A stretch of 64,000 nucleotides of DNA from Escherichia coli O157:H7 (lineage in GTDB: Bacteria; Pseudomonadota; Gammaproteobacteria; Enterobacterales; Enterobacteriaceae). This document shows, in pieces, positions 1,479-4,400 of the stretch (position 1 is the stretch's first letter; every line of letters begins with the position of its first letter). The notes beneath the pieces are model-generated. The model ran no database searches and was not told where the DNA came from. It worked only from the letters and a program-made list of their open reading frames with translations. The DNA lies in the NCBI RefSeq assembly GCF_013167455.1, contig NZ_CP038328.1; one strand, written 5' to 3'. The position numbers were made by a program, and so were the translations under genes.

Positions 1479-4400
1479 TCAGTTAATCGCGAAATAACTA
1501 CTATTCATCAGCAAATCCAGCGGTTGGGCATCGGCAATCACCTCACCATAAATCAGATCGACGCCGATGCCAGAAAGCGTATCCATCACTAAGGGTAAAA
1601 CGACTGGCCCGGCGATGGTTTTCATCCCGAGTCGCTGAGCGTGCCCCTGAATAATCGTAATCAGCATCTCATCCATCAAATTACCCTGCACGTTGGCGCA
1701 TAACTCACCATCAAGTAGCAGGTAATCTGCCATATTCGCTTTCAGCGAGTTGAAGATTTGCAGATCGCGGCCCACCTGACTGAATACGATCCGGCATCCC
1801 CCCAGCCGCAGTTTTTGCACGCTTTCTGCGTGATCGAAAATCGCTTCTGCCGGAATAATCAGATGTAATAACCGTGGTGGTAGAGGGCTATTTTCCAGCT
1901 GCTCAAGCAGATCATTCACCAGCGTGGCGCTACTCAAACCGGCAACGGAAAGGGGGAGGGCGATGCTTATGCCTTTACTGGCAACCGCTTTTGCGGCCTG
2001 CTGGAGAAATTCGTGGAATACCCGGCGGTCAAGAGCATGGCTAAGCGCCGGATCGCTGAAGCTACGACGAAATGTTTGTTCATCAATAATCTCGCCTTCG
2101 CAACTCCAGAGCTTAAGTGAAATCAGCCACAAATTACGCGCTTCCGGGATCCGTGGCGAAGCGACACCGTGGGCGAGCATCATCAACTGATTCTCTTTAA
2201 TCATCCGCCACTGTTCATCAAGCGACATCGCCGCCCGTTCGCTATGTGCGGCAGCTTGCTGCGGTTCGTAAACCGTCACCCGGCCCCGGCCACCATTTTT
2301 GGAGGCATAACAGGCGATATCAGCCTGCGACATCACTTCTGCCGCCTGATGATTGTTGTCATCGATCAAGGTAATCCCGGCGCTGGCACCTACCCGATGT
2401 ACCCGGCCTTCCCATATAAAGTGATAGTCATTCACAGCACTGATAATACGTGTAGCGATAAAACGAGCGCTTTCAACATTGCAGTCTGGCAGCAGCAGAC
2501 CAAATTCATCACCGCCGAGCCGCGCCAGCACGTCACTGGAGCGCAGCATACTCAGCATCAACGACGCCAGTTCGCGCAGCAAAGCGTCGCCCGCCGCATG
2601 CCCGGCGCTGTCATTCACCGCTTTAAAGCGATCAAGATCGATAAACACCAGTGCATGTCGCTGATGCGTACTGTTTACCGTTTGCAGCAGGATACGCAGT
2701 TGTTTCTCAAAACTGGCGCGGTTGGCGAGATGCGTCAGTGCATCATGGGAGGCGCTGTAGCTCAGCTGGCGCAGCATTTTGCGTGATTCGGTAACGTCCT
2801 GAATCACCAGTACCGAGCCTATATTGCTGCCGTCCAGAGTACTTAACGGCGTAATACTGTAATGCACGTCGTAGCTGCCGCCGCTCCGACAGTGCAACAC
2901 CACATCTTGTTCGATCGCGGAACGTGAGGTGTCGGCACTGTAAATGTTCTCCATTAATGGTCCGTTGTCGCCAAAAGTAATATGCAACACCGTCAGGAGC
3001 GGAACACCTAACGCTTCTTCCTGCGTCCAGCCGCTCATCTTCTCCGCCACTGGATTCATAAAGGTAATTTTCATCGCCATATCAATACAGACCACGGCTT
3101 CGCCGATGGAGTCCAGCGTAATGTGCAGGCGCTCTTTTTCCTGAAACAATGCCTCGTTAAGCTGTTTAACCTCAGTCATATCCATATTAATGCCGAGCAG
3201 GCGTTCGACTTCGCCTTCTTTATTCAGTACCCGGTTGGCGAGGGCGCGGATATGGCGGATGCCATCTTTCACGGCAATGCGAAATTCCAGTTTAAAGGGC
3301 GAGCGTGATTGCAACGAATCACGAATCACTTTTTCGGCGTGTTGGCGATCTTCCGGCAGCACGCACTCGTACCACACCTGCCAGTTCGGTTTGATATGCG
3401 GAGGAATTTCATACAGCTCGAACATCCGCTTATCCCAGCTAAAAATATTCGGCTTCAGTTCCCACTCCCAGATGCCAATCCCGCCCGCTTCGTTAGCCAG
3501 CGTGATGCGTTCCATCAGTTGCTGATTCACCTGTTCGGTGCGTTTTAGCTCGTTAATGTCTTCAATCTGAGCGATAAAATAGAGCGGCGTGCCATCCGTG
3601 TGGCGCACCAGAGAGACGGCAAGCAACGCCCAGACAACATCGCCATTGCGGTTGTAGTAACGTTTTTCCATTGAATAGGTGTTTATTTCACCGCTTATCA
3701 GCTTTTCAACCTGTTGGAGATCTTTATTGAGATCCTCCGGCCAGGTCAGTTGCTGAAAGGTGAGTCCGCGCAGCTCTTCCTGACTGTAACCGAGAAACTG
3801 GCAGAGTGCTTTGTTGGATTGCAGCCATTGTCCCTCGGTGCCCACTAATGCCATGCCGATGGCGGAATATTCCATGGCGTTCCGAAAACGGGTTTCGCTT
3901 TCGGAAATGTGTTTGCGTTCCGCACGAAAGGCATACATCACCATCGTCATGATGTTGGCGGGCAGCAGGATCAGCAAAAACGGTAGCCACGGCATATGGC
4001 TCATCAGGTACGTACGCGGCGTAGCAAGCAGGGAGGGATCCGCGGCCATCATCAGCGACACCATCATCACCGTGGTAAGGAAGATCAAAAAGGCTTCCAT
4101 TCGTGGCAGGCGCACGGCGCTCCACATCAACAGCACAATAATGAAAGTAAAAGGCCACGGCAGATACAGCATCGAAAGCCAGCTTAACGTCAGTGTGATG
4201 GCTAACGTGAGCAGCGACTCAAAAAGCAACCGTGGGTTGCGATGGCGCAGCAGATAGTGTGGTTTAAATAACAATCCCAGCGGCACCAGTGCCAGAGCGC
4301 CGATGGATTCTGACAGTACCCATATCAAAAATGCCCTGATGAGGATCGTCTCCGGGCGTCAGCAGGACAACCAGAACACCCCCCAACAGAGGTGGAACAA

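Follow-up and report, generated by a model that had tools for sequence, protein, structure and literature searches.

A single-base insertion in the MASE1 region of dgcE as a probable pseudogenising mutation of typical Escherichia coli O157:H7

[quoted passage not shown] Its N-terminal MASE1 region is followed by three PAS domains, a GGDEF domain and a degenerate EAL domain. MASE1 is the docking site for RdcA, and its deletion gives the same null phenotype as deletion of dgcE itself (PMC6510439). Other natural alleles of this gene, in lineages that are pathogenic or specialised to a niche, are disabled by a small lesion upstream of the GGDEF domain. In Shigella flexneri, the disrupted dgcE (S2255) still raises c-di-GMP when expressed, and its deletion lowers c-di-GMP (PMC11327459). 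In soil isolates of E. coli, a different frameshift (1456delC, H486fs) abolishes curli, a defect that is complemented in trans (PMC6029578).

The dgcE lesion of O157:H7 examined here differs from these alleles in position and type, being an additional A at codon 153, within MASE1. A lineage-marking point pseudogene of O157:H7 is also provided by the uidA frameshift, which is the basis of the glucuronidase-negative phenotype. Each is a small indel that became fixed along the branch that gave rise to typical O157:H7 and that earlier members of the stepwise series lack, but, unlike markers of the uidA type, the dgcE lesion is not in use as a diagnostic marker. The arrangement also resembles programmed +1 frameshifting of the prfB type, in that two frames overlap and the downstream part lies in +1; however, the split lacks conservation among orthologues, a slippery stop site and a Shine-Dalgarno stimulator, and it is not of the prfB class.

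That dgcE is frameshifted in O157:H7 is already known, as database records and a literature citation attest, and the trait has long been annotated throughout the lineage. RefSeq labels the gene 'frameshifted' in strains PA20, F3398 and 20R2R, and the Sakai record lists ECs_2874 as a pseudogene. The lesion has been visible in database annotation from the time of the EDL933-attributed GenBank protein records (AAG57129.1 and AAG57130.1), both of which are entitled 'partial putative sensor kinase'. A 2024 paper cites Povolotsky and Hengge (2016) for dgcE pseudogenes in EHEC, and their work is reported to describe nine pathogenic E. coli in which dgcE is a pseudogene; this secondary citation and the database annotation suggest that exactly this insertion was described there. 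The dgcE frameshift is missing from Table S1 of Richter et al. (2014), where the disruptive GGDEF/EAL variants of EDL933 are tabulated, and we take the gap to be an omission because the two EDL933-attributed records show the split. The EDL933 transcriptome supplements, looked through for yegE and the Z-numbers, yielded nothing, and literature searches by the locus tags ECs2874, ECs2875, Z3235 and Z3236 gave no relevant match.

Within the window (the whole stretch of 64,000 nt of O157:H7 DNA that was analysed), dgcE is identical in alignment to the Sakai gene. The flanking order alkA-dgcE-udk-dcd-asmA is conserved, as judged from annotated neighbours in PA20, Sakai, DEC5A and K-12 and from the udk, dcd and asmA ORFs of the window. 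The gene thus has the chromosomal position of K-12 dgcE, between alkA and udk-dcd-asmA, and the intact allele of strain LSU61 shows the same Pfam architecture of MASE1, three PAS, GGDEF and degenerate EAL domains. The unbroken 1105-codon frame is absent, since a +1 shift is followed by a stop at codon 178. Domain limits were taken from Pfam on the intact LSU61 protein (MASE1, residues 19-294; PAS, 303-672; GGDEF, 682-838; EAL, 898-1088) and then mapped onto window coordinates. The features of the locus are as follows.

1479-4797, minus strand: dgcE (yegE) pseudogene, 3319 nt, longer by the one inserted base than the intact gene (3318 nt)
4264-4797, minus strand: upstream ORF of 177 codons with an ATG start and a TAA stop (4264-4266), encoding the N-terminal half of MASE1
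Residues 1-152 of the upstream ORF, minus strand: native DgcE, with predicted TM1-TM5 of MASE1
4267-4341, minus strand: residues 153-177 of the upstream ORF, the out-of-frame residues HQGIFDMGTVRIHRRSGTGAAGIVI
4519, minus strand: G279C, giving W93C in predicted TM4 of MASE1, the only amino-acid change relative to LSU61 besides the frameshift
4359-4361, minus strand: TGA in the downstream (+1) frame, which with the TAA at 4264-4266 bounds an overlap of the two frames of about 31 codons
4354-4356, minus strand: CCC run at codon 148; ACG CCC GGA GAC is identical in the window, O55:H7 DEC5A and K-12
4340, minus strand: inserted coding-strand A (plus-strand T) in codon 153, GATCCTC[A]TCAGGG, placed by alignment with DEC5A, K-12 and LSU61
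1479-4339, minus strand: downstream native dgcE frame, with the rest of MASE1 (to 3915), three PAS domains, GGDEF and degenerate EAL
1479-4328, minus strand: downstream ORF as delimited mechanically, 949 aa from TTG 4328, in the +1 frame relative to the upstream ORF
4286, minus strand: GTG start of the downstream ORF as gene callers place it, 935 aa, equal to AAG57130.1
4226-4240, minus strand: terminator-like hairpin and T-run, GCAACCCACGGTTGC TTTTT, 24-38 nt 3′ of the premature stop
2781-3890, minus strand: three PAS domains, mapped from LSU61 Pfam
2283-2753, minus strand: GGDEF domain, mapped likewise
1794, minus strand: T3003C, synonymous (Cys1001), the last within-gene difference from LSU61
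1533-2105, minus strand: degenerate EAL domain, mapped likewise

An initial annotation of this DNA, made from the letters alone, had proposed that dgcE is split by a +1 frameshift inside MASE1, and two adjacent minus-strand ORFs of 177 and 949 codons are indeed found. Because both ORFs, the junction aside, are near-identical to one intact gene, the split is not a chance arrangement. The same annotation placed the lesion in the CCC run. This run is unaltered in K-12, O55:H7 and the early O157:H7 strain LSU61, and the extra A at 4340, which lies 14 nt 3′ of it, is the only indel relative to K-12, DEC5A and LSU61. The upstream ORF carries 25 aberrant codons after the insertion and 29 sense codons after CCC, rather than the 23 given. 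Deletion of one C does restore an uninterrupted protein of about 1105 aa, as had been suggested (junction ...LLTPETILIRAFLIW), yet a 1105-codon ORF likewise results when any one base is removed from the interval that the TGA (4359-4361) and the TAA (4264-4266) enclose. Removal of the extra A restores the ancestral junction ...LLTPGDDPLRAFLIW..., also given as ...VLLTPGDDPLRAFLIWVLSE. As the neighbours of the inserted A are C and T, the insertion is not a homopolymer event. Hydropathy analysis places codon 153 in a predicted short loop between TM5 and TM6 of MASE1.

LSU61 carries the same O157-type allele without the insertion, and the window gene differs from it at only three places, namely two substitutions in 3318 nt and the inserted A; W93C is the sole difference between the repaired window protein and that of LSU61. 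Comparison with the K-12 gene, which shares locus, synteny and Pfam architecture, gives 76 differences in about 3318 nt and, once the extra A is removed, 10 differences in 1105 residues. Unlike K-12 DgcE, the window gene has the 1-nt insertion at codon 153, the premature stop at codon 178 and W93C, with five substitutions in the degenerate EAL region belonging to the O157-type allele.

Among 5426 complete RefSeq E. coli genomes, a 41-mer centred on the insertion identified 296 carriers, each with a single copy (293 exact matches and three genomes that have the insertion but differ from the 41-mer at one other position). Wherever a carrier is named, it is O157 or O157:H7; among these are Sakai, EDL933, EC4115, TW14359, Xuzhou21 and 86-24, as well as the near-Sakai sequence of the window itself. 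The insertion is absent from O55:H7, LSU61, the sorbitol-fermenting O157:H- strain 493/89 and K-12, and more than 5000 genomes have an uninterrupted frame. The exact 177-aa and 935-aa products each occur on at least 1000 contigs, the former being an exact match to AAG57129.1 of EDL933. Queries of 3.5 kb and 320 bp made from the repaired allele revealed no genome with that allele and without the insertion, since genomes with the insertion hid closely similar intact alleles in the ranking; once the query was cut 2 nt beyond the junction, LSU61 and 493/89 emerged, which among the genomes searched were the only carriers of the O157-type allele without the insertion. For the intact O157-type protein, a contig look-up gave a single representative entry, a draft contig. 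The extra A, which recurs in independent assemblies of the lineage and is absent outside it, is a clean lineage marker of typical O157:H7.

These distributions bear directly on whether the split might be a sequencing or assembly artefact. Single-base indels in some draft E. coli genomes have been disproved on resequencing, and all of those listed lay in homopolymer runs (Richter et al., 2014, Table S1). The inserted base here is outside any homopolymer, its C[A]T context is identical in 293 genomes, and the insertion recurs in 296 complete genomes, which come from a wide range of laboratories, countries and years and count Sakai and EDL933 among them, and in its fragments on at least 1000 contigs. 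Nothing was found in favour of a miscall, and a sequencing error is excluded. The comparison with genomes of the same serotype that the initial annotation had recommended therefore disposes of the homopolymer error it had offered as an alternative; what survives of its account is a real frameshift that breaks the MASE1-PAS-GGDEF-EAL(deg) frame.

We consider it probable, at roughly 85%, that the insertion is a genuine pseudogenising mutation of dgcE that is fixed in typical (non-sorbitol-fermenting) O157:H7. Ribosomes starting at the normal ATG read 152 native and 25 out-of-frame residues before reaching the TAA, and 953 codons, for the rest of MASE1, the three PAS domains, GGDEF and degenerate EAL, are cut off from the translation start. 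Canonical, membrane-anchored full-length DgcE would then no longer be made. The step lost would be the one at which DgcE, activated by RdcA and RdcB, triggers the PdeR-DgcM-MlrA-csgD cascade leading to curli and cellulose. Since LSU61 carries the O157-type allele intact, the mutation arose after that allele was in place, and it preceded the radiation of the sampled typical O157:H7 genomes.

It is also conceivable, although unlikely, that the gene is split but partly functional. Reinitiation at GTG 4286, TTG 4274, TTG 4229 or an internal ATG would yield a DgcE that has lost its N-terminal part but keeps the GGDEF domain whole; such a product would not respond to RdcA or RdcB and would add to the c-di-GMP pool. 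The 949-codon frame is completely open and has acquired one synonymous change since the intact ancestor (relative to LSU61); this is expected of a young pseudogene and would also be compatible with continued use, so that the youth of the lesion explains it equally well. A premature stop is also expected to bring polarity on the downstream transcript. The terminator-like hairpin 3′ of the stop might contribute to such polarity, and it is treated as no firmer than that because promoter and terminator scans of the region gave counts that do not exceed shuffled expectation (six terminator-like sites against 3.9 ± 2.0 in shuffled sequence). In the junction region, no Shine-Dalgarno match precedes any candidate restart codon. 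The activity of the S. flexneri dgcE pseudogene, which increases c-di-GMP and whose deletion reduces it, offers a precedent (PMC11327459), and K-12 DgcE without MASE1 is expressed, more stable and better at dimerising; against this, the MASE1 deletion is null for CsgD and matrix control in spite of normal protein levels (PMC6510439). Because removal of MASE1 has this null phenotype in K-12 genetics, any restart product in O157:H7 would be expected to be blind to the activator. Rejoining of the two frames by +1 ribosomal frameshifting, programmed or spontaneous, is far less probable still. The sequence CCC-N is slippery and prone to +1 shifts, and the 31-codon overlap contains CCC GGA, a proline codon followed by a less common glycine codon; a slip of tRNA-Pro on CCC-G at codons 148-149 would exchange GDDPL for ETILI in the loop, and the C-deleted protein is uninterrupted. 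However, the interruption is derived, being absent from LSU61, O55:H7, K-12 and more than 5000 other genomes, so no recoding signal could have been selected. The 0 frame ends in AUU GUU AUU UAA with no Shine-Dalgarno-like motif, and neither a prfB-like CUU-UGA with an upstream Shine-Dalgarno sequence nor a stimulatory element was seen; the A/T runs present are too short to allow transcriptional slippage. Spontaneous slippage would be expected to give at most roughly a percent of product.

Accepting the gene as pseudogenised, one may ask whether it was simply free to break once the pathway below it was dead. Many clinical O157:H7 strains have mlrA split by a Stx1 prophage and lack CsgD and curli (PMC4287979; PMC6265319), and such passive, non-adaptive decay is a possibility that we hold as the less likely course, though not a small one. 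Only three changes separate the window gene from the LSU61 allele, which leaves no statistical power for a test of selection. Against passive decay, the frameshift is present in every typical O157:H7 genome sampled, while mlrA-intact, curli-proficient O157:H7 strains exist and are reportedly more frequent among non-clinical isolates (PMC6265319); the dgcE lesion is therefore probably older than, and independent of, the mlrA insertions. In addition, the Sakai annotation shows pdeR, the next step of the pathway, as intact, and the sister clone 493/89 gained a dgcE nonsense mutation of its own. The separate idea that loss of pdeR had made DgcE dispensable was rejected at the level of annotation, gmr/pdeR (ECs_1858) being an intact 1986-nt coding sequence in Sakai.

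The lesion of 493/89 is a separate amber mutation, W352* (CCTGG to CCTAG), and its exact 351-aa product occurs on 41 contigs, including 493-89 and DEC3F. Taken with the additional A at codon 153 in typical O157:H7 and the intact LSU61 allele, it may mean that dgcE was silenced twice independently as Shiga-toxigenic O157 emerged. As a rather doubtful proposal, selection in the EHEC niche against the induction of curli and cellulose through RdcA/DgcE might have left this signature; alternatively or additionally, the open C-terminal frame might supply a deregulated, activator-blind cyclase. Mutational bias and chance remain simpler accounts of the twofold loss, the W352 codon being a Dcm hotspot that has been struck in at least three unrelated strains.

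For the pseudogene reading itself, the consequences for phenotype are less clear-cut than K-12 genetics imply. The initial annotation had pointed to curli and biofilm control, and the effect appears weaker than it suggested. Strain 20R2R of O157:H7 shares the dgcE sequence of the window exactly, frameshift included, and restoration of mlrA alone brought back its csgD expression, its full affinity for Congo red and a strong biofilm (PMC6265319). Either DgcE input is dispensable in that background or some activity survives; the strong curli favours a partly functional split, and a deregulated cyclase, if there is one, would account for it. The K-12 wiring from RdcA/B through DgcE, PdeR and DgcM/MlrA to csgD is not to be assumed for O157:H7, and loss of DgcE would partly explain its differing biofilm regulation. 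The two dgcE fragments should likewise not be scored as lineage-specific genes in pangenome marker screens: a 2025 study listed the downstream fragment, 'dgcE_2' of 2808 bp, among genes specific to O157, apparently unaware that the fragment is one half of a pseudogene (PMC12472240).

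The coding sequence of dgcE (yegE; minus strand, 1479-4797) is split between two reading frames, as the initial annotation had proposed. In the ORF table a short ORF of 177 codons (4264..4797, minus strand), beginning MSKQSQHV, is followed by a long ORF of 949 codons (1479..4328, minus strand) that ends SSYFAIN, and minus-strand translation at the junction places the second in the +1 frame of the first, with a TGA at 4359-4361 closing that frame upstream. When window 4290-4410 (minus strand) is aligned with the alleles of O55:H7 DEC5A and K-12 AB1157, a single indel appears: one A has been added in GATCCTC[A]TCAGGG. 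Gene-wide alignment gives it as the sole indel of the gene, at coding nt 458, which is position 4340 of the plus strand. The lesion had been assigned to the CCC run of ACG CCC GGA GAC, but that stretch is the same in the window, in DEC5A and in AB1157. Deleting one C of the run does reopen the frame, as claimed, but yields the non-native junction ...LLTPETILIRAFLIW; deletion of base 4340 gives the wild-type sequence ...VLLTPGDDPLRAFLIWVLSE. Because the inserted A stands between a C and a T, it does not represent a homopolymer slip. The earlier observation is thus real, and its reading as an inactivating frameshift in dgcE essentially right, but it was placed 14 nt off and wrongly ascribed to a homopolymer.

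A sequencing error, the alternative offered in the initial annotation, is refuted by the distribution of the extra base. A 41-mer centred on the insertion, which is unable to seed on wild-type alleles, has a single match in each of 296 of the 5,426 complete RefSeq E. coli genomes (an exact one in 293, with one mismatch in 3), and about 5,100 other genomes carry the same dgcE stretch one base shorter. The named carriers are all O157 or O157:H7. Sakai, EDL933, EC4115, TW14359, Xuzhou21 and 86-24 are among them, as are isolates of cattle, food and clinical origin from several continents. Each of the two exact products, of 177 and 935 aa, is recorded from at least 1000 contigs, with AAG57129.1 and AAG57130.1 (EDL933), named "partial putative sensor kinase", among the accessions. 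The window is O157:H7; its dgcE shows no difference from that of Sakai, and window 14001-64000 differs from Sakai at 4 of 50,000 bases.

In typical O157:H7 the frameshifted gene is a pseudogene that is fixed in the lineage and has long been annotated; it is ordinary and already known. RefSeq flags dgcE of strains PA20, F3398 and 20R2R as a "frameshifted" pseudogene, and the Sakai record gives yegE/ECs_2874 as a pseudogene. Ojha et al. cite Povolotsky and Hengge (2016) on dgcE pseudogenes in EHEC. Table S1 of Richter et al. (2014; PMC4287979), which gives yddU and yeaI as disruptive GGDEF/EAL variants of EDL933 and ycgF as absent, omits the yegE frameshift; both dgcE pieces are already "partial" proteins in GenBank records attributed to EDL933. 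A 2025 pangenome study (PMC12472240) counts "dgcE_2" (2808 bp) among the marker genes specific to serogroup O157 and describes it as an active cyclase. This gene corresponds to the 935-codon downstream fragment (window 1482-4286, as called from GTG 4286), and the marker is best understood as a by-product of the dgcE pseudogene. Modest added interest comes from the amber codon that arose in parallel in the sorbitol-fermenting clone, and from the curli-proficient strain 20R2R.

Two substitutions in dgcE alleles are listed here.

Substitutions in dgcE
Window 4519: W93C (TGG to TGC), in predicted TM4 of MASE1; the sole amino-acid change relative to LSU61 besides the frameshift
L004:2905 (strain 493/89) and L012-L014, about window 3743: W352*; wild-type in the window

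The intact dgcE of O55:H7 DEC5A is a different allele with 47-50 nt differences, and divergence of this strain from the window amounts to 1.7% over 1-25,453 and about 4% over 25.5-36 kb. Over 7.3 kb, the O157 strains LSU61 and 493/89 are separated from the window by only 2-4 substitutions and the one-base insertion (at most 0.07%). The colanic-acid cluster, the O157 O-antigen cluster, gnd, ugd, wzz and the his operon follow in the window. Because O55:H7 is distant, the two O157 strains are near-identical and the O-antigen cluster follows, dgcE lies within the diverged, presumably recombinant block flanking the O-antigen locus, which we take to reflect recombination accompanying the switch from O55 to O157. 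With a query stopping 2 nt past the junction, which ranks insertion-free alleles first, only LSU61 and 493/89 have O157-type alleles without the insertion. The LSU61 gene is intact (WP_000043770.1) and differs from that of the window by G279C (W93C), the added A and the synonymous T3003C. As this allele is intact, the insertion is later than arrival of the O157-type allele and earlier than the radiation of the sampled typical O157:H7. All three differences between the window and LSU61 in 7.3 kb fall within dgcE (about 0.1 by chance), a clustering that carries no statistical weight.

Strain 493/89, which we take to belong to the sorbitol-fermenting O157:H- German clone, lacks the insertion; one G-to-A change relative to LSU61 converts Trp352 (TGG) to amber, and RefSeq flags an "internal stop". 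One GenBank protein record reads "O157:H- str. 493-89", and the RefSeq genome record says O157:H7. The exact 351-aa product is recorded from 41 contigs, with O157:H- str. 493-89 and DEC3F among the named records, so W352* is present in many assemblies beyond one complete genome, and we infer that it is a trait of the 493/89 clone. The change converts CCTGG, a Dcm CCWGG site, to CCTAG, the classic hotspot of Dcm 5-methylcytosine deamination. The same amber is found in three unrelated genomes (TW10690, AH19D088 and O111:H21 15A) whose dgcE alleles lie 55-92 nt from one another and from 493/89, and it is therefore a recurrent hotspot mutation with at least four origins. Both major Stx-producing O157 clones have a disabled dgcE, reached by different routes, a pattern that hints at selection. 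Mutation at a hotspot and the large size of the gene would be sufficient alternatives.

In the intact allele, Pfam places MASE1 at 19-294, three PAS regions at 303-672, GGDEF at 682-838 and EAL at 898-1088, and by a rough hydropathy scan the site of the insertion, codon 153, falls within the TPGDDPLR loop that separates predicted TM5 from TM6. Translation from the normal start would therefore give a five-helix half of MASE1 followed by 25 aberrant residues, a product that lacks any signalling domain. In K-12, deletion of MASE1, on which the activating GTPase RdcA docks, produces the same null phenotype as deletion of dgcE or mutation of GGDEF, although the protein is present (PMC6510439). In soil isolates a different natural frameshift, H486fs, abolishes CsgD and curli, and wild-type dgcE complements it (PMC6029578). 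From these parallels we infer that canonical DgcE signalling is lost in O157:H7.

Among the restart candidates near the premature stop (TTG 4328, GTG 4286, TTG 4274, TTG 4229 and ATG 4172), none is preceded by a Shine-Dalgarno match, and the overlap of the two frames contains neither a prfB-like signal nor a long A/T run. CCC GGA in the overlap might, we assume, permit rare spontaneous +1 slips. A terminator-like hairpin lies directly past the premature stop, but the region shows no enrichment of sites of this kind. In S. flexneri a disrupted dgcE still adds to c-di-GMP (PMC11327459). The dgcE of 20R2R (O157:H7, NZ_CP062160.1), a derivative of PA20 that is strongly positive for curli and biofilm, is identical to that of the window and retains the frameshift; once the Stx1 prophage had left mlrA, with no further change, this strain again expressed csgD, bound Congo red fully and formed strong biofilm (PMC6265319). 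The frameshift alone therefore does not abolish curli in this background, where either other cyclases substitute for DgcE or the remnant product keeps activity. Together with the S. flexneri case, this argues for caution over complete loss. For curli in O157:H7, DgcE input seems dispensable; loss of pdeR would render it so in K-12 (PMC6510439), and pdeR is annotated as intact in Sakai.

The remainder of the window holds several further features.

Other features of the window
8357-8975, minus strand: HTH antitoxin-like ORF (102 aa) overlapping a RelE/ParE-family toxin gene, between asmA and yegH (from annotation of the collinear O55:H7 locus)
11075-11113 and 36540-36577: JUMPstart, upstream of wza and of the O-antigen cluster, respectively (Rfam, above gathering score)
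25593-25642: algC RNA motif, before cpsG (Rfam, above gathering score)
25640-26978 and 47074-48411: pair of phosphomannomutase genes with about 96% identity over 1.34 kb
About 48741-49675: partial ISEc1 (ISAs1-family, H-repeat-like), adjoining the O157 O-antigen genes (Sakai annotation, mapped from 2774371-2775305)
61700-61823, minus strand: his operon leader (Rfam, above gathering score)

The phosphomannomutase pair consists of cpsG in the colanic-acid cluster and a second copy in the O157 O-antigen cluster, and is a potential substrate for recombination.
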